Shown here one piece after another: positions 13,555-55,200 of a stretch of DNA of 64,000 bases. The position numbers and the translations under genes were made by a program. Under the pieces are notes generated by a model, which worked only from the letters and a program-made list of their open reading frames with translations, was not told where the DNA came from and searched no databases. The DNA is taken from IMG/VR virus record IMGVR_UViG_2770939519_000001, positions 1 through 64,000 of that record; one strand, 5' to 3'. This DNA comes from a virus (lineage: Duplodnaviria; Caudoviricetes). Position 1 is the stretch's first letter. The number at the start of each line of letters is the position of its first letter.

Positions 13555-14346
13555 TCATCCCTTGATCGCTCGGGTGCGGGCGAGCCGGTAGGAATCGGTG
13601 CCGGTTTCGATGATGTGCCCGCCGAAGGTGAGCCGGTCGACGATCGCGGCGCAGAGCCGCGGGTCGGTGAAGGTTTTCGTCCATCCGGAGAACGACTCGT
13701 TGGACGCGATCGCCACCGAGTTCTTCTCCTCCCGCTCGGTCAACACCTGGAACAGCAGCTCGGCGCCCCGACGGTCCAGCTCCATGTAGCCCAGTTCGTC
13801 GATGCAGAGGAGATCGACGCGGCCGTAGCGGGCGATGGTTTTGGTGAGCACCTTGTCGTCGGCGGCTTCGACCAGCTCGTTCACCAGCTTGGCGGCGAGG
13901 GTGTATTTCACCCGGAATCCGGCCATCGCCGCCTCGGTGCCCATTGCGATGAGCAGGTGGCTCTTGCCGGTGCCGGAGTCGCCGATCAGACACAGCGGCA
14001 TACCTTTGCGGATCCACTCGCATTTGGCGAGGGTGTGGACAGTGGCCGGGTCGACGTTGGGGTTGGCGTCGAAATCGAAGGCGCGCAACGACTTGTCACG
14101 TGGAAATCCTGCGGCGCGGATGCGGCGTTCGGAGCGTCGGCGGGCGCGGTCGTCGCATTCGGCCAACAACAGCTCGGCCAGAAACGCCCGGTAGGTCATC
14201 TGCTCTTTGGTCGCGGTGTCGGCGATCTCGCCGAATTGGGTGCGGATCGTCGGCAACCGCAGCATGCGGCAGGCTTGATCAACCGCGGCGTCGGCGGCCT
14301 GTTCGGTCATGCCGTGGCGGCGGGGCGTGCTGGTCGTGGAAGTCAT
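13555..14346 (-). CDS. istB: IS21 helper AAA+ ATPase IstB
   Basis: GDSGTGKSHL Walker A, LLCIDELGY Walker B, AAIVDRL. Confidence 0.95.
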   Translation of the reverse strand: MTSTTSTPRRHGMTEQAADAAVDQACRMLRLPTIRTQFGEIADTATKEQMTYRAFLAELLLAECDDRARRRSERRIRAAGFPRDKSLRAFDFDANPNVDPATVHTLAKCEWIRKGMPLCLIGDSGTGKSHLLIAMGTEAAMAGFRVKYTLAAKLVNELVEAADDKVLTKTIARYGRVDLLCIDELGYMELDRRGAELLFQVLTEREEKNSVAIASNESFSGWTKTFTDPRLCAAIVDRLTFGGHIIETGTDSYRLARTRAIKG

Positions 14347-16019
14347 GAACTGGTGTTTCCTTCCGTGACGGGCGTGTGGCGAAGAAGTTGGTCGTAGACG
14401 GCCACCGATGGAAGCGGACGCCGATCGGGTGGCAACTGGGCCAGGCGACGTTCGGTCAGTGACGGCATCGGATCCGGTTCGTCCAACTCGACTACCGTCT
14501 CGGCTGCCGGGGTGACATCAGCGATTTTTCGGGCTTCCAGGGCGACCGCGTCCGAGGTCAGCGCGCCGGCCTTCAATGCCGCGGCAAGTCCGGCGACGAC
14601 GTGGTCGTGTGGCATGTGCCGATGTAGCAGGAGCACCTCGATCAACGCTCGGGTGCCCTCGCGGGTGCCGTGTGCGGCGCGGGCCGCGCCCCACCACGCG
14701 TCGTGTACGGGTGTGAATTTGCCCGCCGCGCGGGCTTGTTCGAGTGCTGTCGCGCCGGGCAGTGCGCCGGGTTTGCGCAGCAGCCCTTCCAGGTAGTGGT
14801 CGAGCTCCAGTCGTGACAGCCCACGGCCGAGCAGACGTTCGTGGCGGGCGACCTCGGTGCGGCCGTCGTAGACGATCAAGTTGTTGGCGTGCAGTAACAC
14901 CCGCAGCGGGCGGCCGATAAGTCGGACCGGAACCGAGTAGCGGTTGGTGCGCACGGTGATCTGCGCGTAACGGTCGACTCGCGGGGTGAACCAGCGGCCG
15001 GTCTCGAATTCCTCGACAGGTAGCGGTTTGAGCAGTGGCTTCTCGACCGCGAAGTGCTCACCGATGGTCCGAGGCCGGGCGCCGATTCGACGGGCATCGT
15101 CGGCGACGTCCCAGATGTCGATCATCGAGTTGAGCTCCTCGATCGATTCGATCTCCGGCACGGGGACAAGATGATTGCGCCGGAACCACCCGATCTGTCC
15201 CTCCACTCCGCCTTTCTCGTGTGCCCCGTCGATACCGGGCTGGCAGTAGAACGGCTCAAGGTTGTAGTGCGAGCGGAACGCGGTCCAGCGATCGGTTTCC
15301 TCACGCATCCGAGCGAAGCCCAGCACACGGGCGACCGCGGCGCGCAGATTGTCGTAGCGGACCTTGCCGAAGGGCACCCCACCGAGCACGGTGAACGCGT
15401 GCACGTGGCCTTCGAAGAACGCCTCCTGCCCACCGGAGAGGAAGCAGCGGTGAACGGCCTTGCCGGAGAACGACATCCGGAACGCGAACAGGTATACCTG
15501 CACTAGTTCGCCGCGCAGCCGCACCGTCACGTCACCGAAGTCGACCTCGGCCTCCTCACCAGGGCGATGGCTCTGCGGGATGAACACCTGCGCCGGACCA
15601 CGACCGGCCTCGATCCGGATCTTCGGCTTGCGAACGGCGACGTAGTCTCGCAGTGTTTGATATGCGACGTCGGTCATGCCGTGTTCGTCGATCAGCCGCT
15701 GGTAGATGCGTTTGATCGTGTGCCGTTGTTTGCGCGGCGCGTCTAAATCTGCTCGCAGGATCTCATCGACTACTGGTTTGAACGGATCCAGCTTCGATCC
15801 CCGCCGCGGATACGGTTTGTGCTCGGCGGGCCATACCCCGTCTACCGCGGCCCGCACCGTCCGCCACCCCACCCCGTACTTGGCCTCGAGCTGGCGTCCC
15901 GACATTCCCGCACGCGCGTCTCGCCGGATGGCGGCATACAGCTCGACCTTCGACGCACGAGGTAACGACGACTCTCTTCCAGCGCGGCACCGCGAAGCAC
16001 GAGAAGCCTTGCACTGCAA
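14343..16019 (-). CDS. istA: IS21 DDE transposase IstA
   Basis: EAEVDFG, VRYDN, HEKGGVEG, RTNRYSVP motifs; overlaps istB; true start may be somewhat downstream. Confidence 0.95.
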   Translation of the reverse strand: MQCKASRASRCRAGRESSLPRASKVELYAAIRRDARAGMSGRQLEAKYGVGWRTVRAAVDGVWPAEHKPYPRRGSKLDPFKPVVDEILRADLDAPRKQRHTIKRIYQRLIDEHGMTDVAYQTLRDYVAVRKPKIRIEAGRGPAQVFIPQSHRPGEEAEVDFGDVTVRLRGELVQVYLFAFRMSFSGKAVHRCFLSGGQEAFFEGHVHAFTVLGGVPFGKVRYDNLRAAVARVLGFARMREETDRWTAFRSHYNLEPFYCQPGIDGAHEKGGVEGQIGWFRRNHLVPVPEIESIEELNSMIDIWDVADDARRIGARPRTIGEHFAVEKPLLKPLPVEEFETGRWFTPRVDRYAQITVRTNRYSVPVRLIGRPLRVLLHANNLIVYDGRTEVARHERLLGRGLSRLELDHYLEGLLRKPGALPGATALEQARAAGKFTPVHDAWWGAARAAHGTREGTRALIEVLLLHRHMPHDHVVAGLAAALKAGALTSDAVALEARKIADVTPAAETVVELDEPDPMPSLTERRLAQLPPDRRPLPSVAVYDQLLRHTPVTEGNTSS

Positions 16020-21789: not shown

Positions 21790-22006
21790 CAAGCTGACGG
21801 GTGCGCCTCCGCCTACTGCGATCGAGCCGGATTCTATTGCGGTGCAACTGATCTGCCCAGGTCGCCTCATCGACTCAAACATGCCCAGCGAGAGAAGAAG
21901 GTGCCAACTGGGCAGAGGCGGTCCACTGTCGAGGCGCGGGGTACCGGTCATCGGTTCATCCACCGCGCTCGGGCTAAGCTCATTTCTGTTGGGCGGGAGG
22001 AGAACT

Positions 22007-22891
22007 GTGACACGAGACTGGGCAACGCTACTCCAGGTCATGCCAGACTTTCTGGAGCCGGACGTCTCCGCTGGCGGCGACATCATTCCCGCCAATGAAC
22101 GTTTCCAACTGCGAGATCTCGAGACGGGCTACTTCGTCGACTTCACCGGGGAGGGAAAAGGTCTGAAGATTACCGTACCCACCCCGCCAGATCCCGATGT
22201 CGCCGAGCGCACCCTCAGCATCATCCAGAAGCAGCCCGCCGGGATGTGGATAAGGGACAGCGTGTAGTGGCCCGACGACGCCGACGAGTTGAACACCGGC
22301 TGGCGATATTTCCACGGCGACCCCGCTGTCGCCGCTTCCGTCGTGACAGTCATGTGTAATGGGCTGGGCATGGACATGCGTCGACTGCGATCCCGCGCTT
22401 GGGATGACAAAGGACCTCAGCTCTTTTACACTGAAAGCGACTGGCCGACAAGTCGCAATGCCGCGGCGCGGTGCACGGACTGGGACGACTTTACCGACAG
22501 GCTCGACTGGGTGCTACACACCATGCCGCAGAGCGCGATCACTCTCACCGCTCCCGATCAGCAGACAATTCAGTTCACACACCAGTACAACGGAACATTC
22601 AGTTGCGAAGCCAGCCACGACCCTGGCAATGCCGAATCCGCCAGGCGCATGGCGGAGTTGGGTTGGACATATGAAACCACCAGCTACCCGAGGTTCGAAC
22701 TCTGGTCGCCACCAACCGGGCGAGCGGGGCGCAAACCAGTACTGAACAACGCCGCATACCGTGCGGTCACTACCTTCCGCGAGGTCTACGGCATCGACAG
22801 CCTACGGCGGTTACAGGTCGAGGTCACTTCTCTACGATCGCGCCTCGACGAAATGTCTTACGTCGCTATCGAACTGGGACTCAAAGACTGA
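22007..22891 (+). pseudogene. Two-domain YbjN/T3SS-chaperone-like (TY-Chap-like) protein with an internal TAG
   Basis: GGGAGG RBS and GTG at 22007; ORFs 21734-22267 and 22289-22891 share a frame and are split by one TAG (22265-22267); DWATLL and DWDDFTDRLDWVL repeats. Confidence 0.6.
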
Positions 22892-23040
22892 AGGCTCGCC
22901 TGACATTCGATGCTCGTCCGTGCGCCGGCCAGCCGATTCCTGCTTTCAAGGTGGACATCGTCGGCCGTCTGGAAGCACGGCTTCGTAGCCTTGAAACCGA
23001 GGATTCGATCACGGCTGGTCGGGGCGCCTCATCTTCTCTC

Positions 23041-23244
23041 CTACTCGTCCTCGGGTTCATCAAGCCACGCTTGATATTCGGGATTGACGATAGCCAGACT
23101 GATGACATTGGGGATCGCAGACAAATTGACGACCACGTTCGGCAGGTTCCAACCGATTGTCGCGTCGACCCCCGGTTCATGTCGATTCGGCGCGCCTGGG
23201 ATTGCTGTCAGAGCTGTGCTGAGAGCGGAGAAGCTGTCGCTCAC
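23041..23244 (-). pseudogene. C-terminal fragment of a DUF6301-like immunity gene
   Basis: GWNLPNVVV...LAIVNPEYQAWLDEPEDE matches the C-termini of the paralogues. Confidence 0.6.
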
Positions 23245-23334
23245 TTGCTCACCGGCCGACGGCAGGAGGCGGTAACGATGGCGAGATATGGCTGGGATGC
23301 AGGTGGATGTTTCGCCTGAGTGGTAAGAGTAGAA

Positions 23335-23430
23335 ATGCGTGAAGCCCCGACTCGGATCGAGTCAGGACTTCGCGAGAGCCCTTCAGCGGGAAGGAGTCTC
23401 CCAGGTCATGATGAGCGCAAATATCTGCCG
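23335..23430 (+). repeat. Degenerate copy of a ~100-bp hairpin-containing repeat
   Basis: ATGCGTGAAGCCCCGACTC-GGATC-GAGTCAGGACTTC...GATGAGCGCA; matches 29002-29100. Confidence 0.75.
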
Positions 23431-23665
23431 CTGGCACAAGACCGGCTACCCAGAAATTCTTCAACGCCCGCGCGACCGGGCTTGTCGACTGCGGGCTGGT
23501 GATCAACACCGGAGTTCGGCCATCGAGTCGGCCCAATTGCCAGCCGCGTCGCTCGCTGAGATGGCCAGGCCTGTCTACAGGCCACGGCCAGTCGAATCCG
23601 ATTGCTGCGCAAAAGATCTGCACGGCCTCGATATCCTGTCGCATCGGGTACTGGGGGAGCCGCGG

Positions 23666-24184
23666 TCAGTTCTGGGGCCAGACGCTGTCGAGATCGGGAT
23701 GAGCTTCGGGCTCGATCCAATCATCGTTTCGTCCTGCCATGCCTGGTTCGGGGCTGACCAGCGAGACATTGCCCGAGCCATCACTCACCGTAATCTTCAG
23801 AACAATACCGGGCACGTCCCAACGCAACATTCGGTTCGGATCTCGCCACCACCATCCTGTCGGAAGCTGCCCTACCAGCACGAATATCCGCTGCGCCAAT
23901 GCGTCGAAAGCATTGGACAACAACGGCTTTGTGCTCGAGTCATTCAAGACCACGTCGGTGAAGTAGAACCAGACCTGATCGACAGGCCGAGGCCCGCAAT
24001 CGAGGAACCTGTCGAGGAGGCTATAGCTTCGGTGCGGTTGAGGTCGAAGTCGGTAGTCAGTGCGGGGGTCGTTGGTCGAGATCGGTCACTCGCCAGCCAA
24101 CTTGCTGCGCGAATCCGAGGAGATCATCGATGGTCCACGTCCAATCGAACTCCGAGGCGACCCCGTACTGATGTCTGATCGCAT
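23666..24184 (-). pseudogene. DUF6301-like immunity paralogue (subtype B), frameshifted
   Basis: MRSDI.. / SEFDWTWTIDDL..FAQQVGW / LTTDFDLNRT / FDALAQRIF..WWWRDPNRMLRWDVPG pieces lie in different frames. Confidence 0.7.
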
Positions 24185-24214
24185 TGGAATGTGTTCTGCT
24201 CGACCGGGATCGAT

Positions 24215-24718
24215 TCAGTCTTCTTCCAGGTTCGCGTCGTTCTCGTCGTTCCACTTCTGATACGCGGGACTGATGAAGTTCAAATACACCCCGGTCTTGC
24301 TCGTGGTCACCGTCACCACGATGCCAGGAAGATCCCAACGCAGCCCGCGGGTCGGCTCGACCCAGCTTCCGTCCGGGCGCTTCTCGACCACCTCGAACAC
24401 GCGCTGCGTGAGTTCGTCGAATACCCTATCAATTTCAGGCTTCATCCCCGGATCGTTGACGATCGCATCGGTGACGTTGAACGTGATCTGCTCCAACGGC
24501 CGCGGCACGTCCGGATTCACTCTGTTGTTGATATACAGCAAGGCGTCGGTGCGCTCGATCGCGAGATCGGTGGTCAAGGAGGGGGATCGGTCCTCGGGTC
24601 GGCTCTGTTGCCAACCGACTCGGTCGCTGAAATCAGCCAGGTCTGCAACGGTCCATGCCCACTCGAATTCGGATGCTGCACGGACGATCTGTGCGGCGCG
24701 CTCGATGTCTCTCTGCAT
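24215..24718 (-). CDS. DUF6301-like protein, putative immunity (subtype A, intact)
   Basis: MQRDIERAAQIVRAASEFEWAWT...RGLRWDLPG...SPAYQKW; close paralogue of 26002-26502. Confidence 0.8.
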   Translation of the reverse strand: MQRDIERAAQIVRAASEFEWAWTVADLADFSDRVGWQQSRPEDRSPSLTTDLAIERTDALLYINNRVNPDVPRPLEQITFNVTDAIVNDPGMKPEIDRVFDELTQRVFEVVEKRPDGSWVEPTRGLRWDLPGIVVTVTTSKTGVYLNFISPAYQKWNDENDANLEED

Positions 24719-24953
24719 CTTGGGACACTGCTTTCTTGCTGTGGCGGCTCGGTTTCAGACCATCACGAGCGGTTGTTGCTTCCCATAACCCGAGAGCGCA
24801 AGTGCGTTTCACAGGAAGGCGCCGTGCGTCAGGTATTTGAGCTACTCGACTTTGGTGCTGTCCTCGTCCCCACAGCCACCGACGAGTAGCGATCGCCACT
24901 CACAGCATGTCGAAACCCGGTCACGCCAGAGGATTTCGGTGGAGGTCACCCAC

Positions 24954-25513
24954 TCACACCTGTCTGTGACCTAAGTGAGAGTCTAGTCTCCGCGGGGTCC
25001 AGACACTGGCGAGATCAGGGTGCATATCGGGGTCGATGCGATCATCGATATCGTCCTGGTATTCGGGGCTGACCAGCGCAACGTTGTCCGAGGTGTCGCT
25101 CACCGAAATTTTCAGCACGAGTCCGGGCAAGTCTCAACGCAACATCCGATTCGGATCTTGCCACCACCGACCAGCGGGCGTTGACCGACGAGCTGGAATA
25201 TCCGTTGTGCAAGCTCGTCGAAAGCATTGGACAGCAGTGGCTTTACATTCGCATCATCCAGGATGACATCGGTGAAGTAGATCCAGATCCGCTTTGTTGG
25301 ACGCGCCGGATCGACTGAGTTGTCATGGAATGCCATGACGTCGGTTCGGTTGATGTCGAAGTCGGTAGTCAGTGTGGGGGAGCGCTGGTCGAGGTTGGCC
25401 AGCTGCCAGCCAACTTGCCGGACGAATTCGGGGAGGTCGTCGACGGTCCAGGCCCAATTGAACTCCAAGGCACCCTGGATGACCTGAATGGCACGGTCGA
25501 GGTCTGCTCGCAT
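24954..25513 (-). pseudogene. DUF6301-like immunity paralogue (subtype B), frameshift plus TGG>TGA
   Basis: MRADLDRAIQ...FNWAWTVDDL is intact to ~25190, then shifts to GRWWQDPNRMLR*DLPGLVLKISV...HPDLASVW. Confidence 0.75.
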
Positions 25514-26001
25514 GGATGGACTGCTCTTCTTTGTGGGGCAAGCCGGTTCGGGGCGGTGCGAGGCTGGTGCCGCCTCGCACCGCGCGGTGAAGGTACGTGT
25601 TCATAGGTAGGTCAAACACCTGAGGCTTTCCGCTCGGGTCGTGTCCTGGGCGGAAGGCTTGCGTTGTGCGATGGCGACAGTTACCGGCGGGATCGCAACA
25701 GCGAAGGTCACGGAGCCAGCTGCGAGCCGGGCGAGCAAGTTGTCGAGCGGTCTGTTCTCGGAGCCGGCGACCGCGGGAATTGGCAGCGCGACGCCATGTA
25801 GTCTCGGCTCCGAGATTTCGTCCGCAGGTGGAGTGGCCAGTGGCTTTGCCGGTTTCGGTGTCGTCGGGACATTTCCCACTCGATCCGTCGTCTCGCCTCT
25901 CTGATGCGGCGTGCTGTTTACTCACTTAGGACCGGTTCCGGCCCCAGATTCACGCGGTTGCCGCACAAGCGATCTACACGGCGAGCTCGATCACTCAGCT
26001 T

Positions 26002-26502
26002 CTATTCGTCGCCGTCGGCCTCGATTTTGTCCTGCCATCTCTGATACTCGGGACTGACCAACTCGACATAGACAGTGCGAGCACTGGTCGTCACCGCTAC
26101 TGCGATCGTGGGCAAATGCCAGCGCAGGCCGCGGGTGGGTTCGACCCACCACTCGTCGGCCCGTCGCCCCAACACCTCGAACACCCGTTGTGCGAGCTCA
26201 TCGAATACCCGGTCGATCTCGGGCTTCAGATTCGTATCGTCGAGTATCACGTCGGTTGTCCTGAACCAGATATGGTTGAGCGGACGTGAGTCGCCGGTTC
26301 CGACTGTGTTGTCGACCGACAGCATGGTGTCGCGACGATTGACGTCGAGATCGGTGGTCAGTTCGGGATACGTCTGATCCAGACCGGTCAGCTGCCAGCC
26401 GACCAGGTCGCTGAAGGCGGGGAGGTCGGCCGCGGTCCAGGTCCAGTCGAATTCCGTTGCGGTGCGCACGATCTGCGCGGCACGTTCGATGTCTGTACGC
26501 AT
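26002..26502 (-). CDS. DUF6301-like protein, putative cognate immunity protein
   Basis: MRTDIERAAQIVRTATEFDWTWT...; first gene downstream of the toxin. Confidence 0.8.
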   Translation of the reverse strand: MRTDIERAAQIVRTATEFDWTWTAADLPAFSDLVGWQLTGLDQTYPELTTDLDVNRRDTMLSVDNTVGTGDSRPLNHIWFRTTDVILDDTNLKPEIDRVFDELAQRVFEVLGRRADEWWVEPTRGLRWHLPTIAVAVTTSARTVYVELVSPEYQRWQDKIEADGDE

Positions 26503-26596
26503 CTGTATGAACAGTACTTTCTCGCTGCTGCGGTTCGGGGCTTCACAGCACCCCCTGTGGGTGTAGCTTTCCACAACAAGGTCGTGAAGGGTGCGC

Positions 26597-28819
26597 TCAC
26601 AGATGAGCGCCGTGAGTGAGACATTTGAGCCACTCATCCCAAGGAGCACCCTGGGCGGATGCTGGGCGGGGTGCGATGGTAACCACCATTGATTGATCTG
26701 CCGGTCGGCGGCGGTTCCAGAACCCCTGCTGCAACTCCGGAATCTCGGGTACGGGGATGTGGAGTTGGGCGAGAGCGGACACGTCGTGCAGTCGTCCCTG
26801 AACCAGCTCTCCGAACCACGTTGTGGCTTGACCGAGCAGGCCGCCCAACGAGTTGTCGGTGTAGGGGGCGGGTTGTGTAAGCGGTTGCGCTACTCCGTGA
26901 ATAGTGGGGCCATGCCCTGGCTCTTGGCCAGTTGTCTTACCTATGACAGTGTCGCCGGGGGTCCAACCGTTGGCCGGCTCTTGATTGGAGCCGTAGATAA
27001 TGATGTTTCCATCGGTGTCGGTTTTGATCAGGCGGTAGCCGACTCGGGCGGGGTCTTCATTTTGGACCGCGTCCCACACTCCATTGTCGACCAGCCATTG
27101 CATGAAGGCTGGATCATTGGCCGCATCTTCCTTGAGTTTGCCCCACAGGTAAGGGTCGGTCATCTGCTGAGCGCGAATCGTCGTATCGCTGTCGGGACCG
27201 TCGGGAACCATAGCGGTGCCCGGTCTGGGCTTGCCTGGATCGCCACCTTTCGATTCGATGACCATGATCTGGCCGTTCTTCACGGCGACCAGGTCATGCG
27301 TGTACGCACCAGAGGGCCGAGTATTCACTGTCCAGCCGTCGGATTTGAGCATCGCGACCGCTCCGGCCTCACCAAGCAGTTCCTTGGCGCGGTCCACGGG
27401 GGCTTTCGCCTTCCACCAGGCGTCGATTGCTGCCTGCAGAGGGGCGGTGGGCAATCCGAGGTCGCTGAGATCCCGCAACTGAGCATTGCGTACATCTTTG
27501 TCGCTGCTGGTGAGTTTGCCGATATCGATGTCGAGGTTGGGGTTCTGCTCCTCGAGTCCTGAGGCCAGACCTTCGATCCCCTTGTAAAACATGTTCCGGT
27601 AGATCTTGGCGACCTCGACGACGCCCATGGCCAGCAAGACAGGTGGGCGATACTCTTCGTCCAAGTCTTCAAATTTCCAGCTCAGGAGGCGGATCAACTC
27701 GGACCTGAGACTGATCCTCCCGTCGCCCTTAGCGGCGAAACTGCCTGGCTGTTTTCCCTCTGGGTTTCCTTGCCCCCATCGCAGGGTGTTGCCGTCCCAG
27801 TACGTTCCTTCTACCGGAACCCAGGCTTGCCCAGGCTTCGTACTGGGGAACAGTTGTCGCTGATGGTTGGTATTCGGATCGTTTGCTGGTCCGGGGATTG
27901 TGGTCGGCGCAGTGCCGGGGTTGCCTTGGTTCAGCGCGTTCGGGCCGGGGGTTACGGTCGTAGTCGCACCGGGTCGGGTGTTGGGACTGGGGGTATCGGG
28001 CAGCGAATTGGGATCCAGGCGATCGTCGGATTCGCTACGGGGCTTGTCGTCGTTGCGTGTCAGGTAGAAGTGCAGAGCCGTAAGCCCGAGACCGACGACG
28101 ACAGCCGCGCCAGCGCCGATGACGGCACCGGGAACAGCTCCGACGCCTCCGCCGCCGACGGTGCCCACCGCCGCACCGATTTCACCTCCCTCGATTGCCA
28201 TCGTCGCGAGCTCGGCGGCTGTGAGACCCGCCCCTGCCTCGAGCGCGCCGGTTCCGAGCGCCGCACCTGCGCCCGCACCCAACAGCGCGGTGCTGTTACC
28301 GTCGCTCCTGTCGTCGCCGTCGCTGCCCGATGAGACTCGATTGCCCTGGCCGTCAATGGTGTACAGATACTCACCCGCGCGGTTCAGAACCGCGTAGCGA
28401 GGCTTCCCATCGGCTCCATCGGCCAGCTGAGTCTTAGTGGCGGGGTAGGGGTCGCTGGCGTAATGGGGTTGTTCCGCGGGGACATTGATTTCGACGCGGC
28501 TACCGTCGCTGGGGTCGTAACCGTGATAGGTGTGGGCCGGTTGCGGCGCGGCGGGGACCAGGCCTGGGGAGTTCGGGTTGTAGGCCGGGAGGTCCGAGGC
28601 TTGTGGGCGCGAGGAATTCTGTCCCGGTTGAGAATTCGAGGCGGGAGACTGTGACTGTTGCTGGTTGGCAATCGTGGACCACACCGGATCCTGGGCGACT
28701 CTGTCGTTGTTCGCCTGGATCGCGGCCCGCGCGGCCGGGTCGCCCAATATCGCGGCTGCACCTGGATCGAGTGGGGGGGTTTTGGTTGAGTCGGACGACG
28801 AGTTCGGCTGGGGAGCCAT
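26597..28819 (-). CDS. Polymorphic-toxin-like protein with PD-(D/E)xK nuclease domain
   Basis: 740 aa; low-complexity N-terminus; glycine-zipper hydrophobic region (GAAVGTVGGGGVGAVPGAVIGAGAAVVVG); nuclease motifs LLGEAGA...HDLVAV...VIESKGG; GGAG RBS. Confidence 0.75.
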   Translation of the reverse strand: MAPQPNSSSDSTKTPPLDPGAAAILGDPAARAAIQANNDRVAQDPVWSTIANQQQSQSPASNSQPGQNSSRPQASDLPAYNPNSPGLVPAAPQPAHTYHGYDPSDGSRVEINVPAEQPHYASDPYPATKTQLADGADGKPRYAVLNRAGEYLYTIDGQGNRVSSGSDGDDRSDGNSTALLGAGAGAALGTGALEAGAGLTAAELATMAIEGGEIGAAVGTVGGGGVGAVPGAVIGAGAAVVVGLGLTALHFYLTRNDDKPRSESDDRLDPNSLPDTPSPNTRPGATTTVTPGPNALNQGNPGTAPTTIPGPANDPNTNHQRQLFPSTKPGQAWVPVEGTYWDGNTLRWGQGNPEGKQPGSFAAKGDGRISLRSELIRLLSWKFEDLDEEYRPPVLLAMGVVEVAKIYRNMFYKGIEGLASGLEEQNPNLDIDIGKLTSSDKDVRNAQLRDLSDLGLPTAPLQAAIDAWWKAKAPVDRAKELLGEAGAVAMLKSDGWTVNTRPSGAYTHDLVAVKNGQIMVIESKGGDPGKPRPGTAMVPDGPDSDTTIRAQQMTDPYLWGKLKEDAANDPAFMQWLVDNGVWDAVQNEDPARVGYRLIKTDTDGNIIIYGSNQEPANGWTPGDTVIGKTTGQEPGHGPTIHGVAQPLTQPAPYTDNSLGGLLGQATTWFGELVQGRLHDVSALAQLHIPVPEIPELQQGFWNRRRPADQSMVVTIAPRPASAQGAPWDEWLKCLTHGAHL

Positions 28820-28842
28820 TGATCACACTCCATGCGGGCATG

Positions 28843-28878
28843 AAAAAGCCCAGGCGGCAATATGTTTGCGGCCTGAGC
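28843..28878 (-). terminator. Intrinsic terminator directly upstream of the toxin start
   Basis: Minus strand GCTCAGGC-CGCAAACATATTGCC-GCCTGGGC-TTTTT, ending ~24 nt before the ATG. Confidence 0.65.
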
Positions 28879-29001
28879 GGTGGACGGGATGCAAAGGCGG
28901 AGGTCACACCCCCGCCGAGGGCCGGGGCGCGACAGGAGGGCGGTCCTTGCGGCTCACCGGCCGACGGCTCGGGGCGGGAACAAAGGCGGGATGTGGCTGA
29001 G

Positions 29002-29100
29002 ATGCGTGAAGCCCCGACTCGGGTCGCTGAGTCGGGGCTTCGAGTGAGAGTTATTCAGAGAGAGGAAGTCTCACTGACCTGATGAGCGCACAGATATGGC
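29002..29100 (+). repeat. ~100-bp repeat with a perfect 13-bp hairpin
   Basis: GAAGCCCCGACTC (29008-29020) / GAGTCGGGGCTTC (29029-29041); paralogous to 23335-23430. Confidence 0.75.
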
Positions 29101-29174
29101 GCTCGCATCAGCTTCACGTAAACGGGGAACTACGTCAAGCCCGCAGGTGCGGAGCGGTGCTGGTCATGTACGGT

Positions 29175-30153
29175 TCAGTCGCGTCGGCGTCGCACGCCGA
29201 GCTCGGTGTCCAGGTAGCGCAAACCCTCTGCGGCGAAAGACAATTCCCGAGGATGCTGCGCGCCGAAGATATCCCGCAGTGTCGCTATCGTGCGGGGGAC
29301 CAGCTCGCCAAGGGTGCGGTTCTGCAACGTCCGTGTGCGAGAACCCTTCCAGATCGGGTACTCGACGCCACCGAAATCCTCTGGTGCCCGATGCCATCTG
29401 AGCGAGTCCATCCGAGCGTGCAGTTCCGCGCGATCGAGTGACACCGCTCCACCCAGCAGACATTGGCTGTGGATTTCGAACTGACTGAAGAATTCGATGC
29501 TGGTGCATCGCCTGTCTCACTCGGCGCGTGCAGGCTCAGCACCTGGCCCGACGGCAAGGTCGTGATGGCCCAATCCAGCCGCTCGGCGAAATCACCCCAG
29601 TCGATGCAGGTTTCGGCCGCATCGCGGTGAAACGGGCGATCCGGAGCGACTGATGTCAGCTTCCGAGTCCCCCCGTACAGCGCGTCCACCGGGCCGTCGT
29701 TATCGGCCGCCGTGTACCGCAGCCGCTGCGGCGCGGCACCCAAACCATCCCGCAGCACCTCGACCAGCGTGGCCGCGATCTCCTTGCGAAACCGTTCATG
29801 GTTCGGCCAGCCGGTCTTGCACTGCCGCACCGACATATCGCGCGTTTCCTTGAATACCGAGGACGGCCCCCACATCGGACCGTCTTTCTGCCGCAGCACT
29901 TCTCCCGAGGGGAGGTGAATCGAACCGACATTGGTCGTCCGGTTCGACCGAAGCACGTCCACCAGTCGCCCCGCCGCCACCGGACCCTCGGGAATCGGCA
30001 CGATCACCTCGTTCCAGCCATGTTGTGGAACAGCACCCGATGTCCGGTCTCGACGTCGCGGATCTGGACGAGACTTCCATCGTTGGTGCCGTCGTGGCTG
30101 TACAGGTACAGCGGCAGATCCTCGAGCAATCGCTCCCAGCTGTATTCGGTCAC
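29175..30153 (-). pseudogene. Two-domain TY-Chap-like paralogue with two frameshifts
   Basis: VTEYSWERLLEDLPLYL...QIRDVETG aligns with VTRDWATLLQVMPDFL...QLRDLETG of 22007; DWGDFAERLDWAI matches DWDDFTDRLDWVL; shifts near 30015 and 29490. Confidence 0.6.
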
Positions 30154-30267
30154 AGTTATCCCCAATCCCTTTGATCGCCAACAACATAGCGACGCACCCC
30201 GACATCCTCGGCCCTGGCCGACTCAGCCAGACCGCTACGCCAGCGAGATCTCCAGGTTTGGGCTAGT

Positions 30268-31398
30268 TTGCGTGATATGCGTGATCAGATCGACGGACCG
30301 ACACAGTCCGCGACCGAGAATCCCGAAGCGGCGCAACCGAACCCGGCCCAGACTCGACGTTTCGGCCCGCTGTCCGCGATTCCGGCGATGGAGCAGCCGG
30401 ACGTCGCGCTGGTGGGTAAACCGGAGTACGCCGAACTGCTGATGACGACCGTCCGTCGGCGTGCCCGGATACACGGTCGATTGGTGGGCTTGGCGGCCGC
30501 GATCCCGCTTGTCCTGATGGTCGTGCTGTGGGTGTTGCACCAGGACGCCATCGCGATGGCCGTGACCGCGGTGGCTGCCTTCGTGGTATTCCTGCGGTGG
30601 ATGGGAATCGGGCCGCTGGCGCGGACCTATCGCGCGGTGATCCCACTCGACGGGCAGTCGATGACCATCCGATTCGGTCCCGACGCGTTCGACTTGCAAG
30701 GCCCCGGCGACCGGGTCCGCTTCCCGCACAGCCGCTTCCGCGCGATTCAGGTCGAGCCGGAAACGATTACCTTGCGCATGCGAAACACCCTGATCACCTT
30801 CCCGCGAGAACTGTTCCCGGACACGGCGATCGACTACCTCCGCGCCCGATTAGCCGGACATGACGATGTCGCCGCTCCGCCGCCGCTGCCCTCGCTCCCG
30901 CCGCTGGGTCAGCCGACCGCGCAGGTCACGGCCGGACCGGACACTGCTTCGCAGCTTGCCTGGGCAGTCACCTGGCGAAGCAATCGGCAACTGACCCAGC
31001 TCAATGCCATCGTTGCCGTGACGCTCGTACTCACCGCCGTAGTGGTCGGCGGTGAACGAGGTCTGGCCGCCGGTGCCTTCGCGGCGGGCGTGATCATTCT
31101 CGTCGTGCTGGCCGCCCGCCTGACCGCGGCGGTGATCGACTTCGCCCGCATGCAAAGAGGATTCACCGCTTACGCCGCCGACGGCGACGTGCTCGCCACC
31201 AGGTTCGGACCCGACGCGTTCGCGGTGCGCACCGCCGAAATGCACAGCCACATCCGATACGACAGAATCGCCAAACTGACCGTCCGCCGTCACACGGTGC
31301 TCATGACCCACGGCGGCCGTGCCACGGCGTACCCGCGGGAATTGTTCCCCGATACAGCAATAGCGCATATACGCGCGGCCAACCCGAGTTTGCTCTGA
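30268..31398 (+). CDS. Membrane protein with two tandem [2TM + YcxB-like] repeats
   Basis: Two hydrophobic hairpins, each followed by RFGPDAF...PRELFPDTAI. Confidence 0.75.
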   Translation: MRDMRDQIDGPTQSATENPEAAQPNPAQTRRFGPLSAIPAMEQPDVALVGKPEYAELLMTTVRRRARIHGRLVGLAAAIPLVLMVVLWVLHQDAIAMAVTAVAAFVVFLRWMGIGPLARTYRAVIPLDGQSMTIRFGPDAFDLQGPGDRVRFPHSRFRAIQVEPETITLRMRNTLITFPRELFPDTAIDYLRARLAGHDDVAAPPPLPSLPPLGQPTAQVTAGPDTASQLAWAVTWRSNRQLTQLNAIVAVTLVLTAVVVGGERGLAAGAFAAGVIILVVLAARLTAAVIDFARMQRGFTAYAADGDVLATRFGPDAFAVRTAEMHSHIRYDRIAKLTVRRHTVLMTHGGRATAYPRELFPDTAIAHIRAANPSLL

Positions 31399-31413: not shown

Positions 31414-31449
31414 GTAGGCCGAGCGCCCTCCGGATAGCGCCCGGCCTAC
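31414..31449. terminator. Hairpin between convergent genes
   Basis: GTAGGCCGAGCGC...GCGCCCGGCCTAC; 13-bp stem with one mismatch. Confidence 0.6.
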
Positions 31450-31467: not shown

Positions 31468-31566
31468 CTACACGACCGCGACCACCGAACCGAGCAGCAA
31501 GCCGACAAACGACACCGCGGCAGCGACAGCGACACCGAGCAGACTTCCAACACCGGGCAGCAACAT
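31468..31566 (-). CDS. 32-aa hydrophobic peptide, copy 3
   Basis: MLLPGVGSLLGVAVAAAVSFVGLLLGSVVAVV*; GAAAGGA RBS. Confidence 0.8.
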   Translation of the reverse strand: MLLPGVGSLLGVAVAAAVSFVGLLLGSVVAVV

Positions 31567-31626
31567 GACCGTTCCTTTCGGTTGACTGTGAATAGGTAGG
31601 TAGTGCTTTCAGGGCCGCGCAGTCGA

Positions 31627-31725
31627 TTACAGAACCGCCACCACAGATCCGAGCAGAAGACCAGCGAAAGTCACCACAGCAGCGACAGCGACGCCGAGCA
31701 GACTTCCGACACCGGGCAGCAACAT
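31627..31725 (-). CDS. 32-aa hydrophobic peptide, copy 2
   Basis: MLLPGVGSLLGVAVAAVVTFAGLLLGSVVAVL*; GAAAGGA RBS. Confidence 0.8.
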   Translation of the reverse strand: MLLPGVGSLLGVAVAAVVTFAGLLLGSVVAVL

Positions 31726-31835
31726 GACAGGTCCTTTCGTAGGCGAATTGCAGTGCGAACGTTGAAGCAGGCACACGACACAGCAGGTGCGTGGCCTGGG
31801 GAAACGTGAATGCGAACTACGAACGTCTTCCGCGA

Positions 31836-31934
31836 TCAGATAATCGCGACCGCGGCACCCAGTAGGACGCCGACGAAAGCCGACACTGCGGCAACGGCGA
31901 CACCAGCAATACTTCCAACGACGGGCAGCAACAT
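31836..31934 (-). CDS. 32-aa hydrophobic peptide, copy 1
   Basis: MLLPVVGSIAGVAVAAVSAFVGVLLGAAVAII*; GAAAGGA RBS. Confidence 0.8.
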   Translation of the reverse strand: MLLPVVGSIAGVAVAAVSAFVGVLLGAAVAII

Positions 31935-32239
31935 GGAGCGTGTCCTTTCTGATGGTCCGGTATTCCGGTGCGGTGCTTCGTAATCCATGTCTACCCAGGC
32001 TTCTGAATTCATAACCACACAGACGCGCAATATTTTTCGCGCCCCGCACACCGGGTCATTTCCGGCATTTCGCTCGAATCAGGGTCGCGGTAGTCAGCGC
32101 CGACTTATGCCGAGTGCATGGCCGGGCAACTGTAAATCCAAGCCAGGACCACCCAACGCGCCGGTTATGGTTCATAGGCTATTGGGTTCCGACCGGGCAT
32201 TCACCCGTCGAACCGACGTCGGATCGGAAGGCAATCACG

Positions 32240-49298: not shown

Positions 49299-52200
49299 AT
49301 GTCCTATATCGCTGGCCATATCAAGATCACCGTCAGCCCGGACATGAGCGGTTTCACCGAAGCCGTCGAGCGGGAATTCCGCAAAACCAGAAGCGATTCC
49401 GCCGCCGACAACGCCCGCGACGACAAAGCCGCCGTAGAACGCGGCCGGGCGCGCGGTAAAGCCGAAGGCGTCGCGCACGGCAAGGCATTCCAGGACGCCT
49501 CCGACCAACACACCCGCCCCGGCCGCGGCCGCGGAATGAACGAGCGGCTCGCCGACTACGAAAAAGAACTGCGCGAGCGCCGCAAGATCCGCCGCAAGAT
49601 CGAAGACGACGACGAGCCCGTCCGGCAGCGCTCCCGCGCCGCCAAAAAAGACGCCGACTGGCTCGACGACGAAATCCGCAAGGAAGAGTCCGCGCGGCTG
49701 CGGCGCAATCGCACTCGCCAGGCCCGGCAGGAACGCGAGGCCGAGAACGACGCCAAACGCGCCGCCCAGCATGCCGAAAAACTCGCCCGCAACAGTGATC
49801 TCACCGCGCGCACCGCCCGCGAACGGCAACAGATCGCCGACGCACTCAACCCCGCGGGCCGAAACGCCCGAGGACGTCTGCGCGGATACACGCGGCACGT
49901 CCAGGAACAGATCCTCTCCGCGGGGCAGCTCACCCAATTCAGCAACAAACAGGCCGACGCCTGGCGCAAGGCCGCGGCCGCCCAGGACCGTGCGTCGGCC
50001 GACTACGCCAAAGCCGTGCAGGCCTCACGAAAAGCCGATCGCGATGTCGACAACGCCATCGACGACCTGGCCCAGCAGCGCGCCACCAATGCGTCGAGGC
50101 GGCAGGTCGGTCGGGCCGAGAATCGGCTCGACAATGCGCTGGACAATCAGCGGCTTGCCAATGACCGCAAGGCTGTTGCAAAGGATGCGGTCACTCGGGC
50201 TCGGGCGGAGGCCGATCGGGCGGGGAGTGAGTTCCGGTCCGCGCACGCACTGTCGTCCTACGATCAGACGCGACTCGACGCGATCGTCAGAAATGTCACC
50301 GCGCAGGCCCGCCAACGCCGCGACTTCAACTCCGGCACAGCCGATTCCGATTCCAATGTCATCGGCATCGCCAACCGCAACGCCGATCTGCTCAAACGCC
50401 GAGGCGCGAACCGCAACGATCAGAACGCCGCGCAGACCGCCATTGCCGCTGCCGCCGAACTGGACAGCGCCGAACGCAAGGTGTCCCAAGCGGAGATCGA
50501 ACGGACCCGCGCGCAGGAACGGCTCACCCGTGCCGCGGTCGCCAAACACCAGGCCGACGCGCAGTCGATCACCGACGCCACCCGCCTGGCCGCGATCAAC
50601 AACGAACTCACCAACGCCATGCGCGCCCGCGATATCGCCGAGGCGCGCGTCTCCACGACGAAGCACTACCGCGACGTCGCGGCCACCCGATACCAGGGCG
50701 CCGACAGATCGCTGCGAGATCGCGAAAACGTCAGCCCCGTACTCCGGGCAATGGAACGCGTCGGCTCCGGACTCGAAAGCCGTTGGGGCGCACTCAACGA
50801 CAAGCTGATCTACATGGGCCGCTACCTGTCCTCGGTCGGGCAGATCGCGATGTCCTCCGCGGCCGCGCTGGCTGCCTTCGGCGCGGTCAACCTGCTGCCG
50901 CTGATCTCGTCACTGGGCCAGGCCCTCGCTGCGCTGTCCTCGCTCCCCGCGGTGATCGTCGCGGCGGGAACCGGTATCGCCGCGATCGCCGTTGGCGGGC
51001 ACGGCCTGTTCTCCACACTCAAAGCCGCGGGCCAGGCCAGCAAATCAGCGACCGCCGACGCCGAGTCCGCCGCCGAGAAGCAGACCGACGCCGACCGCCG
51101 AGTTCGGGAGTCCGGCGAGAACCTTGCCACCGCGCGCCGCGACGCCGCGCGCACGGCCGCCAGTGGCGTCAGACAGATCGTCGATGCCGAGAAATCCGTC
51201 CAGAGCGCCCAGCGCACCAGCGAGGACGCGCAGAAATCACTGACTCGCGCCCGCAAGGACGCCGCGGAGAAGATCAAAGACCTCAACGACGCCCTCAAAG
51301 GCAACGCGCTGTCCGAACGCGGCGCGAAACTGTCGGCGCTGCGTGCCGAGAAGAACCTGTGGAAAGTCTCGGCGGATCCGGATTCCGACTGGCTCGACAT
51401 CGCCGAGGCCGTCCAGGCCCGCGATGAAGCGAACTACAACGTCGAACAGGTCCAGGCGGCCAATCAGAAGAAACTCGAAGCCGCCACCGAGGCCAATGCC
51501 AAAGGCGTGGAAGGCGACGACCAGGTCGTCGAGGCCAAACAGGCTCTGATCGACGCCAATTCACGCCTGGCCGAAGCGCAGGAGCGAGTCGGCGAAGTCG
51601 TACAGCAGGTCGCCGACGCCAACGACGACGCCAACCGGCGCGCCGAACGAGCGGTCGAGTCCTATAACGACGCCCTGCGCGAACAGCAGAAGGTGCTGGA
51701 CACACTCGGAAAATCCGGGGCCGCCAAGACCTTCGCCGAGGAATACCGGAAGCTCTCACCCCACGCCCGCGACCTGGTGGACCAGGTGCGATCGCTGGGA
51801 CCGGAGTGGACCAAACTGCGCACCACCGCCCAGGACGCGCTGACCCGTGGACTCGGCCAGGCATTCACCGACGTCGCCACCAAACAGCTGCCGCTGATGC
51901 GCATCGGATTCGCGGCGATCAACAACGAAATCAACGCGGGCCTCAAACAGAGCCTCGCCGTCTTCGGCAGTAATAAAGCCCAGCTGGACTATTCGGCATT
52001 CCTGGGCAACACCACCTCCGGATTCCGGAACCTGATGCAGGCCGCCGCGCCCCTCTCCCGAATCTTCATCGACCTGTCCACCGCGGGTTCCGCTGTCCTG
52101 CCGCGACTGGGCCAAGCCCTGTCCGACAGCGCATCACGCTGGGCCGACCGTATCGCTGGAGCCCGCGAAACCGGTGAACTGAATGCCGCCATCGACCGCG

Positions 52201-55200
52201 GCATCGAGAAGATGAAGCAGTTCGGTCACGTCATCGGCAATACCTTCGGCGGCCTGCGCGGCTTCTTCCAAGCCCTGCGCGGCGAAGGCGACGGACTGCT
52301 CGCCACCCTGGATCACTCCACCGCGCGATTCGAAGCCTGGACGAAATCCGCCGAGGGCGCGAGCTCGATCCAACGCGTCTTCGCGGCGATCAACGAAAAG
52401 GCCGGGCAGGTCTGGTCGATCATCAAGTCGATCGTCTCCTCGGTTGCCTCGATCGTCGCTCCGGTGGCGGACAACTTCGGATTCACCCTGACCGTCGCCG
52501 AGAAATTGGCATCGGCGATCGCCAAGATCGTCGATGCCCTCATGTCCTTCGGCCCCACGGCCAAGCTGATCGAGGGCGTACTGACCGTCTTCGCGGCCAT
52601 GTACACGCTGAGATCTCTGAGCACGGTATTCACAGGTATCAAGTCCGCCGCGATGACGGCCTACACCGGCATCGGTGTGGCGGCAATCAATGCCCGCCAG
52701 AACATGACCGGCTACTTTACGGGAATTCGTGAAGAGTCCCGCAGCACCTACCAGCTCATGCGGGGACACCAGGCAGACCACGTCGAAGATGCCAGGGGGC
52801 GCTACAGCCAGTTGCAATCGCGGGCCGGCGCAGCCTTCTCCGGTATCCAGACCGCGGCCACCAGCGCTCTCGGCGGCGTTCGCTCGATGACGAGTTCGCT
52901 GGTCAGTGCGATGGGCGGCTGGTTCAATGTCGTGGCGATCGCGGGTGTGCTGGCTTTCACGCAGATCTCCAGTGCCATATCCGGTTTCAACGACAAGGTC
53001 GCCGCGGCAAAGAAGGATATGCAGGAGGCGCAGCAGTTCGACCTGAAGTTCAAGCTCGACCTGAGCAAGGCGCTCAACAATTCGGACGGCCTGGTCGACG
53101 AGCAGGTCAAGGGGGTCATGCTCCAGAAGGTCGAGCAGTATCAGAAGACACTCGACTCCGCGATCTCGAAGAAGACCAGTTTCGCCGACCAATACGGCGA
53201 GCAGTGGAAAGACACCGACTGGTGGAATGTCGGTGAGCACCTGATCAATCTGATCGGTGGCGATATGGCCATCGGCGGTCTACTCGGTGGGACGGGTGGA
53301 GCTGCTCCGGATTCCTACAAGCTGGACCAGGCCGCCGACGCCGCCAAGGCGGTCAAGGATCGGTTGTCGGATCTGAAGATCACCAATGAAGGCCTGACCT
53401 CCGCACTGACCGGTTCGAATATCGAATGGGACAGATTCAAGGTGCGCCTGCTCGACGGCAGTGAGGGCGGCCGAATCGCGGCCGAGCAGTTGCAGAGGAC
53501 TCGCGACGAGTTCGTCGAATCGCAGAAGACCGCATCGCGGCTGCGTGACACCATCGACGAGTTGAAGTCGAAGAACCTCGAAGCCGCCGATGCGGTCGAG
53601 AAACTGACCAGTGTTCTTGCGCGCCAACGCAAGAACAATATGACCCAGGACGACGCGAAGTCCCAGGCCTTCAGCGCGCTGGACGAGCTGAACAACTTCA
53701 AGCCGGTCGAGAACGGCGGAACGGTCTTCGAAGGCGACCAGATCAACCTCCGGAGCGAGAACGGCCGACGATACCGCGCTCTGCTGCTGTCGGTCGCGGG
53801 TGGCTACGACCAGTTGGCCTCGGCGTCGTATCAGGCTTCATTGAGTGTCAACAACAATGAGGGTGCGGCGGCCGTCGCCGCTCAGAACGCTACGCAGGTG
53901 ATCACCGACTCGGTGCGGGAACGAATCGCCGCGTACGTGGGCGAGGGTCAGGCACTGGAGAACCTGATCACTCAATATCAGCTGGGTCCGAACAGCCTCC
54001 AGCAGCGCATCGATGCCGCGCGCGGCGGTAATCAGGCGGTGGCCACCGCGGTCGATCCGACCGTCCCCGCTTCGGTAGCGAACAACCCGACCCTCGCGGC
54101 GTTGTTTCCCGCTCTGGTCCCAGGTGTTCCGCAGAACACCCAGCCGGGCGGCTTGTCCTCACTGTTCCCAAGCCTGCCCGCAACTCAGCCCAATCAAGTC
54201 GCGCCACAACCCGCGCCGCAGTCGGCCGTTCAGCAGCCGAATCCCGCGCCCCAGGTGGTTCCCGTTCAGCTGAAGGTGCCCGACTACAGCGGCAGCCTGC
54301 AGGCCTACAACGATTACGTCGCCGCTGTCGAGGCGGGCTACAACCAGAAGCTGTTGCCCGCTTTCACCGGATCCATCGATAAGGCGAACGCGCTCGGCAC
54401 CGCGGTCTCGGGTGCCGCCGATACCGCCAAACCCGCGTTCGAGCTGATCACCGGTTATGTCAACGGTTTGAATATCGTGTTCGGCGACAACCTCGGTGAC
54501 CAGAACGGTGCGCTGAAAGCGTGGAAGACGCTCTACAACACCATGGGTATCGATATCACCGCGATGTCGGACACCATGTTTCCGAAGCTCGTACAGGCGC
54601 TGACCGATCTGGGGAACCAGTTCAACACAACCCAGTCGGGGATCGCGACGAGTTTCGGCGGGATCAAACGCGGCGTCGCCGAACCGATCAACTGGCTGAT
54701 TCAGAACGTCTTCAACGGCGGTCTGAAAAACGCGTGGAACGCTGTGCGGCAGGTGATTCCGTCGCTGCCGGAGTGGACGGTCACCGTCGAGCCGATCACC
54801 GGTTATTACTCCGGCGGTGTCATCCCCGGCTACACCCCGGGGCGTGACACCCAAGTCATCGCGGTCGGCGGCGGCGAGGCCATCCTGCGCCCCGAAGTCG
54901 TGCGGGCGATCGGCACCGATTGGGTGCACGGGGTAAATTCGGCGGCGCGGACCGGCGGCGTGGACAAGGTTCAGCAGCAGTTGGGCGGACGATTCGCGGG
55001 TGCCTTCGCCGACGGCGGCATCGTGGATACGATGAAATCGGCCATCCAGGAACGCTTCCCGGGAATGCAGCTGACCTCCGGCTACCGCAATGAGCCGGGC
55101 AGCTATCACTCTACCGGTCAGGCGGGGGATTTCTCCGACGGCACCGACGACACCCCCGGCATGCAGCGGCTGGCCGCGTGGATCGCGTCGAACTTCCTCG

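Follow-up and report, generated by a model that had tools for sequence, protein, structure and literature searches.

Organization of the micro-protein array

The window, the 64,000-nucleotide stretch of DNA analyzed here (C24:9347-73346 of the host genome), carries three small open reading frames (ORFs) in tandem on its minus strand. We confirmed at all three coordinates the original prediction of three 99-nt ORFs, each with its own GAAAGGA Shine-Dalgarno (SD) sequence (Table 1); the length is exact in every case and includes the stop codon. Copies 1, 2, and 3 encode the peptides MLLPVVGSIAGVAVAAVSAFVGVLLGAAVAII, MLLPGVGSLLGVAVAAVVTFAGLLLGSVVAVL, and MLLPGVGSLLGVAVAAAVSFVGLLLGSVVAVV, respectively. 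D, E, K, R, H, N, and Q are absent from all three, leaving zero charged residues and GRAVY values of 2.2-2.4. Their calculated average masses, with Met kept, are 2949.6, 3007.7, and 2979.7 Da. The peptides have in common Gly7, Ser8, Gly11, Gly22, and Gly26, along with the N terminus MLLP(V/G)VGS, so that the lack of charge and the conserved glycines and GS serine had been read correctly at the outset.

Table 1. Features of the prophage micro-protein array (window coordinates)
Feature	Position	Strand	Description
Micro-protein gene copy 1	31836..31934	-	32 codons + TGA; most divergent of the three
Micro-protein gene copy 2	31627..31725	-	32 codons + TAA
Micro-protein gene copy 3	31468..31566	-	32 codons + TAG
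Shine-Dalgarno GAAAGGA, copy 1	31943..31949	-	8 nt 5' of ATG
Shine-Dalgarno GAAAGGA, copy 2	31732..31738	-	6 nt 5' of ATG
Shine-Dalgarno GAAAGGA, copy 3	31573..31579	-	6 nt 5' of ATG
Perfect 14-bp-stem GC-rich hairpin	31414..31449	.	18 nt past the copy 3 stop
Upstream intergenic region, 290 nt	31950..32239	-	common with divergent phage exonuclease gene, ATG at 32240

The repeat unit of the array is the coding sequence plus the 13 nt holding the SD, and nothing more; the spacers (110 and 60 nt) do not align to each other. Between the array and the convergent gene at 30268-31398 lies a hairpin of -39.7 kcal/mol (z -3.0), which none of 200 shuffles matched in folding. It is likely a bidirectional terminator without a U-tract, a kind common in actinobacteria. 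In the upstream region and the spacers, on the other hand, folding is no stronger than in shuffled sequence (z -1.5, -0.4, and +1.1). Based on this combination of a terminal hairpin with spacers and an upstream region of ordinary folding, the three genes are probably co-transcribed from the intergenic region they have in common with the divergent exonuclease gene, within which we presume the array promoter to lie. A sigma-70 consensus scan, which is uninformative for an actinobacterium, returned no promoter match for the array. Two terminator-like matches from the same scan were set aside, being weak and located inside or upstream of genes.

The convergent gene (30268-31398, plus strand), which shares the terminator hairpin, encodes a 376-aa protein with two internal repeats, each made up of a hydrophobic hairpin and then a ~100-aa domain that ends ...PRELFPDTAI..., and has no Pfam, PHROG, or PADLOC match. 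On the other side of the array, positions 32208-32223 read TCCGAC-GTCG-GTTCGA on the minus strand, 17 nt before the exonuclease ATG. Compared with the actinobacterial LexA-box consensus, this sequence has one good half and one 4-of-6 half. The divergent promoter region by 32240 could be under SOS control via this candidate LexA box.

Coding evidence for the three ORFs

We compared the copies with one another and with family members from other species to assess their coding character. Copies 2 and 3 differ at 17 nucleotides, 12 of them at third codon positions, with 4 amino-acid changes (dN 0.08, dS 0.56), and copies 1 and 2 are further apart (dN 0.25, dS 1.06). For 31 unique family coding sequences from 7 species, the median dN/dS is 0.27, and variability at codon positions 1, 2, and 3 is 0.19, 0.07, and 0.34 (3>1>2). 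The low variability at position 2 fits selection for hydrophobicity. Mostly synonymous or conservative substitutions next to diverging spacers had been taken as a sign of selection on the peptide, and both the dN/dS of ~0.27 and the unalignable spacers agree with this. The reading frame is conserved in homologues, with length fixed at 32, 28, or 27 codons and a strong SD 6-9 nt 5' of every family copy.

Such ORFs are rare in the genome. A scan of all 8.4 Mb returned 12 SD-preceded ORFs of 20-50 codons without D, E, K, R, H, N, or Q, and nine of the 12 belong to the micro-protein family; the array pattern is therefore well beyond chance. AlphaFold2 predicts one helix spanning residues 3-31 (pLDDT 91). 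With 32 residues and neither an n-region nor a cleavage site, the prophage peptides have no cleavable Sec or Tat signal peptide, and they are in this respect of the same kind as PorA, PorH, and ProtX (<60 aa and no cleavable Sec/Tat signal).

Together, these comparisons lead us to conclude that the three ORFs are real genes, for uncharged micro-proteins of 32 residues with a predicted single helix. Chance ORFs within a DNA repeat, without function as genes, would fit the antisense frames that are also open in the GC-rich DNA here, but a dN/dS of 0.27, the conserved length, an SD on every copy, a repeat unit confined to SD and coding sequence, more than 100 copies over 29 species, and the near lack of other ORFs of this kind genome-wide reduce that explanation to a negligible one.

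Position within the prophage

Two 27-bp att repeats flank the window from outside, at C24:8957-8983 and C24:84726-84752. The first lies inside an intact tRNA-Arg(ACG), and a tyrosine integrase gene is present at C24:83254-83598. The window falls entirely between the repeats. Thus, judging from repeats and integrase, it is wholly inside a prophage of ~75.8 kb integrated at tRNA-Arg(ACG), which bears out the suspected prophage association of the array, although the family itself is chromosomal in origin (see below). One of the ~21 PF00756 mycoloyltransferase-family paralogues in the genome (C24:5750-6781) is situated 2.2 kb left of attL.

Genes in the window include a YqaJ recombinase, a primase-helicase, an SSB, the phage exonuclease, and HTH regulators, as well as a large terminase, a portal protein, the major capsid protein, and minor tail proteins. 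The tape measure, judged by its position in the tail module, is an unusually long ORF of 2524 aa (49299-56873, plus strand). Between the replication and packaging modules, accessory genes run in both orientations, and the array sits among them, with phage genes on both sides and opposite in orientation to both flanking genes. No transferase or hemophore-related gene adjoins the prophage array, and PADLOC and PHROGs scans of the neighboring accessory genes gave nothing relevant.

Two other features of the prophage stand out. Among the early genes, positions 13555-16019 hold an IS21-family element (IstB-like ATPase and Mu-type transposase). Positions 22000-30200 form a lower-GC accessory stretch (0.60 versus 0.64) with minus-strand genes, among them a 740-aa ORF and a DUF6301 gene, that match nothing in PHROG or PADLOC.

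Distribution of the family

The host is a Nocardia, and a search for further copies placed nine family members in its genome, three in the prophage and six in a chromosomal array (C39:30553-31726), in which all six tandem copies are exactly 32 codons long and have strong SDs. A profile of the nine peptides matched in 29 of 267 Nocardia species genomes. Members in this genus nearly always form tandem arrays of 2-7, with an overall range of 1-7 genes, and fall into length classes of 32 and 28 aa by profile. A third class of 27 aa (MLLSVTVPLGLG...) came to light only when loci of this type were examined in two more species. The spread of such arrays in Nocardia is thus underestimated by the 32-aa profile, since it misses the 27-aa class. 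Members of the 32- and 28-aa classes all have Ser8, within a Gly-rich segment, and the 27-aa class has Ser4 and Thr6 in its place. The 27-aa arrays (L144:5970-6498 in genome G024, contig C17; L062 in genome G152) are tandem, uncharged, and downstream of a hemophore-related gene.

Two solitary ORFs were also observed. The sole further ORF in the host genome that resembles the family is an SD-preceded, uncharged, 28-codon ORF, MLVALASGFLALLGVGLGALAAVFGIIL, at G000:C31:145768-145854 on the plus strand. In N. pulmonis, a solitary member with its own hairpin (L050:9951-10049, scaffold 16) lies ~400 bp upstream of a gene for a 1087-aa MmpL-family transporter with C-terminal CarboxypepD_reg-like domains.

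Outside Nocardia the family was not recovered. A pattern scan of the genomes of 185,579 species matched in Nocardia only, with relatives including N. pulmonis CDC141 and N. brevicatena NBRC 12119, and in 395 genomes covering 96 further genera of the order, an HMM search gave only two marginal matches (E ~0.005), which we took as noise. Among 1.8 billion protein representatives, a profile search found 4 unnamed relatives only. No family in Pfam or NCBIfam matched at E<=10 beyond noise, the sole Rfam match was a sub-threshold sucA outside the array, and the ESM Atlas held no match at 0.8 or above. The micro-protein family thus appears restricted to Nocardia and is effectively unannotated.

There was also no relative in 50,697 phage records (blastn and tblastn) or in a pattern scan of IMG/VR, and we therefore ruled out that the array is a general phage gene. 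The phage copies have 73-82% nucleotide and 70-91% amino-acid identity to any chromosomal copy. Low nucleotide identity with high protein identity indicates that the prophage array is probably an old capture kept under purifying selection. Like phage morons and conversion cargo, the array lies inside the prophage borders, has chromosomal homologues, is oppositely oriented, and ends in a terminator hairpin. The family is thus probably chromosomal in origin and the prophage copy captured cargo.

A chromosomal cassette with a mycoloyltransferase and a hemophore-related protein

To find what accompanies the chromosomal arrays, we examined 20 kb around the arrays of eleven other species, with genes called by GC3. 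Only two genes were common to all of these loci, one for a ~360-aa PF00756 esterase and one for a ~140-aa secreted protein, the TIGR04529 hemophore-related protein, whose gene is always near the array. The PF00756 gene is tail to tail (3' to 3') with the array at a distance of 68-526 bp in 20 of 21 species examined, and ~1.2 kb away in the remaining one and in the 27-aa class, where it is again a Cmt1-type gene of the array-linked clade.

The best solved relative of the PF00756 neighbor is Corynebacterium glutamicum Cmt1/MytC (4H18/8QHF), matched over the full length at E 3e-78 to 3e-81, as opposed to 1e-41 to 1e-46 for PS1 and ~1e-26 for Ag85; the bit scores are 267-277, 144-162, and 85-98, respectively. 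The catalytic triad of Cmt1 (S189/E310/H341) aligns in the array-linked transferase. The long 271-311 segment is present and 5 residues shorter than in Cmt1, and PS1 has a further 8-residue gap relative to the Nocardia transferase within this region (residue roles of the triad and segment are from PMC11927696). Based on these alignments, the neighbor is assigned as a Cmt1/MytC-type protein mycoloyltransferase, closer to Cmt1 than to Ag85 or PS1. Cmt1 orthologues have been reported in Nocardia (PMC5310785, PMC11066868).

The outer flanks of the cassettes fall into two unrelated contexts, gyrB-gyrA-DUF3566 and purQ/purL-type plus peptidase genes. Only the array, the transferase, and the hemophore-related gene are shared between the two, from which it appears that this trio was kept together through relocation. 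In quick IQ-TREE and FastTree trees, the array-adjacent transferases form one clade (support 96-100), and the best matches of array-lacking genomes form a separate clade with this genome's universal Cmt1 paralogue, which is about as close to Cmt1 as the array-linked paralogue is. Genus-wide, a transferase of the array-linked type (E<=1e-156) was found in 24 of 29 array-bearing and in 0 of 238 array-lacking Nocardia genomes. Array-bearing species occupy at least 3 separate places on a tree of the universal Cmt1 paralogue, the single-gene proxy on which our species relationships rest. The joint presence and absence of array and transferase would thus not be a single event, given this proxy species order.

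As a control, we searched 47 loci (183 kb) around other mycoloyltransferase paralogues and found no small uncharged SD-preceded ORF, whereas all six loci of the array-linked clade fetched in the same way hold 1-6 of them. Beside Cmt1-like genes of two other genera there was none, in a sample far too small for inference. A dependence on a Cmt1-type transferase is seen only at the level of neighborhood and co-occurrence. These data show, by sequence comparison, a conserved and selected micro-protein family with a genetic tie both to a Cmt1-type enzyme dedicated to it and to a hemophore-related protein.

Candidate functions of the micro-proteins

Three alternatives had been put forward in the original prediction, namely, type I toxin-like pore formers, small mycomembrane proteins of the PorA/PorH/ProtX kind, and unmodified bacteriocin-like peptides. 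We favor the second. The repeated linkage to a Cmt1/MytC-type gene speaks for it; homology to the named proteins does not, as no sequence similarity to PorA, PorH, or ProtX was detected in Pfam, NCBIfam, or the 1.8 billion representatives. The family would therefore be an analogue of these proteins and not a homologue.

Since the chromosomal copies stand beside a dedicated Cmt1-type mycoloyltransferase, the peptides are probably lipid-tagged peptides of the outer envelope rather than toxins. No enzyme other than Cmt1/MytC is known to attach mycolate to proteins (PMC9671496). PorA/PorH assembly depends on Cmt1 and on Ser O-mycoloylation (PMC13643282, PMC11927696), and ProtX, with 38 aa and no signal sequence, has one Ser mycoloylated by MytC (PMC5310785). 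Known O-mycoloylation sites follow no strict motif beyond a Ser with Gly, Ala, and Ser around it (PMC11066868); Ser8 appears to match this context, though not specifically.

We propose, with moderate confidence, that the peptides are signal-less envelope micro-proteins that serve as acceptors of the dedicated mycoloyltransferase at Ser8, and that the prophage copy is old captured cargo that alters the lysogen surface. Lacking a signal sequence, the peptides would insert into the plasma membrane unaided and display the conserved N-terminal MLLPxVGS segment at the outer face. There, the periplasmic Cmt1-type enzyme would transfer mycolate from trehalose monomycolate to the near-invariant Ser8. 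The mycoloyl-peptide would then relocate to the mycomembrane and be abundant there, in a structural or pore-like role. The prophage array, a self-contained unit with its own SDs and its own terminator, would depend on the transferase of the host. Its probable effect would be a changed lysogen surface, possibly with altered phage adsorption.

Several observations count against this proposal. The peptides are wholly apolar, with the look of ordinary plasma-membrane helices, unlike corynebacterial PorA, PorH, and ProtX, which are polar or acidic. Helix packing, instead of acylation, could account for the conservation of Ser8, which belongs to a small-xxx-small pattern (G7-S8-x-x-G11). Neighborhood and co-occurrence point to a coupling with the enzyme and do not prove that the peptide is its substrate. 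The prophage array has neither partner gene beside it. There are many Cmt1-like paralogues in Nocardia, and the universal one is about equally Cmt1-like. Finally, the solitary N. pulmonis copy is upstream of an MmpL gene and not at the transferase, which would also suit an accessory role.

Such a role is the strongest alternative to mycoloylation. The peptides would be unmodified inner-membrane micro-proteins accessory to the mycolate export or transfer machinery, much as KdpF or AcrZ serve their partners, with the Cmt1-type enzyme, an MmpL transporter, or the hemophore-related protein as the partner to which they add a small subunit, an anchor, or a regulator. The sequence is that of a textbook apolar transmembrane helix, the same transferase and hemophore linkage data apply, and the N. 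pulmonis copy fits either view. However, known regulatory micro-proteins are single-copy and stoichiometric, while arrays of 3-7 diverging paralogues with a strong SD each suggest a product made in bulk. The N-terminal PxVGS segment, which is nearly invariant, falls outside the core of the helix, and a phage copy arriving without a partner gene would be harder to explain. We therefore regard accessory proteins as possible but rather unlikely.

Type I toxin-like or holin-like peptides under antisense RNA control, acting in prophage stabilization or abortive infection, are improbable. The ORFs are small, hydrophobic, and tandem, and the array is in a prophage, as would be expected of such peptides, but every copy has a strong, optimally spaced SD, and with no folding beyond that of shuffles in the upstream region or the spacers, there is no sign of SD sequestration. 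No toxin or antitoxin family matched in Pfam, NCBIfam, or Rfam, with no homology to Hok, Ldr, Ibs, TisB, Fst, or other toxin families in the first two, and the peptides lack a charged tail. Up to 7 copies occur at a conserved chromosomal locus, co-occurring with envelope enzymes, and the family is in no other phage of the phage and viral collections searched. The first of the three original alternatives thus found no support.

The third fared no better. Secreted unmodified bacteriocin-like peptides or RiPP precursors would account for tandem precursor-like genes with a shared N terminus and greater variation further along, but the peptides have zero charge and are not cationic amphipathic, a leader and double-glycine site are absent, and no conserved transporter, immunity, protease, or RiPP-tailoring gene is nearby, only the transferase and hemophore-related gene being shared, which makes this reading very improbable.

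Returning to mycoloylated envelope peptides, we tentatively extend the proposal to the phage, though we consider this extension rather doubtful. In some Nocardia species, a portable cassette of dedicated Cmt1 paralogue, hemophore-like carrier, and an array of acceptor peptides would produce mycoloyl-lipopeptides of ribosomal origin as bulk material of the mycomembrane, and a temperate phage would have captured the peptide genes to re-surface the lysogen by way of the host enzyme, for example to exclude phages that use the peptides as receptors, in the way that Cog uses ProtX. The host genome also carries the chromosomal cassette, so that its enzyme could act on peptides encoded by the phage. 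Infection by corynephage Cog requires ProtX and PorA (PMC9671496). Taken together with the host cassette, this requirement makes a conversion or superinfection-exclusion role of the phage copy plausible, if speculative.

Significance

To our knowledge, protein O-mycoloylation has been demonstrated so far only in Corynebacterium. Substrate choice by Cmt1, and the route that takes signal-less mini-proteins to the mycomembrane, have yet to be explained (PMC11066868, PMC13643282). In Nocardia, a genus that includes human pathogens, the family links a dedicated transferase paralogue to a very simple candidate acceptor, 27-32 residues long with a single conserved Ser, in a pairing defined by genetics. 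By our searches, the micro-protein family is new, and annotation pipelines miss it as a conserved gene family of >100 copies. From the phage-borne copy it seems that conversion genes for envelope micro-proteins can travel on temperate phages of mycolic-acid bacteria.

Comparison with known systems

Ibs/Sib, Ldr/Rdl, and Hok/Sok resemble the array in that their short hydrophobic peptides are often tandem, prophage-borne, and unannotated. The array differs from them in its strong SDs, its conserved envelope-enzyme neighborhood, and its lack of homology, and neither an antisense partner nor translational occlusion is in evidence from Rfam, folding, or the sequence alone.

The phenol-soluble modulin (PSM) alpha operon of Staphylococcus has a similar layout, with four tandem genes of ~21 codons, each with a ribosome-binding site and long unannotated, and a bulk, signal-less, surface-active product. 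PSMs, in contrast, are charged amphipathic peptides that leave the cell through a dedicated ABC transporter, and their lineage and chemistry are unrelated. Phage morons and lysogenic-conversion genes provide the closest parallel in genomic setting, as the array is self-contained, host-derived, counter-oriented, equipped with its own terminator, and placed in an accessory region; it differs in being known from sequence alone, with a presumed promoter.

PorA and PorH are likewise small helical mycomembrane proteins without signal peptides and with adjacent genes. In the published MytC model, Ser15 of PorA enters the active site. They are, however, acidic and amphipathic, with 45 and 57 aa, and form a hetero-oligomeric pore. 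The Nocardia peptides have no polar face, so a water-filled pore made from them seems unlikely unless Gly and Ser line it.

ProtX (cg2875) of C. glutamicum differs in being single-copy, in having polar residues, in being modified near the C terminus, and in not being encoded beside cmt1, whereas the Nocardia peptides are apolar throughout, are encoded in arrays, and are paired with a transferase paralogue of their own, their modification being a prediction. ProtX is a solvent-extractable envelope protein, Ser-acylated by Cmt1/MytC and needed for phage adsorption (PMC5310785, PMC9671496). It is tiny, signal-less, and was long missed by annotation, as are the Nocardia peptides with their 27-32 aa and no signal sequence, and their near-invariant Ser and genetic tie to a Cmt1-type enzyme extend the likeness.
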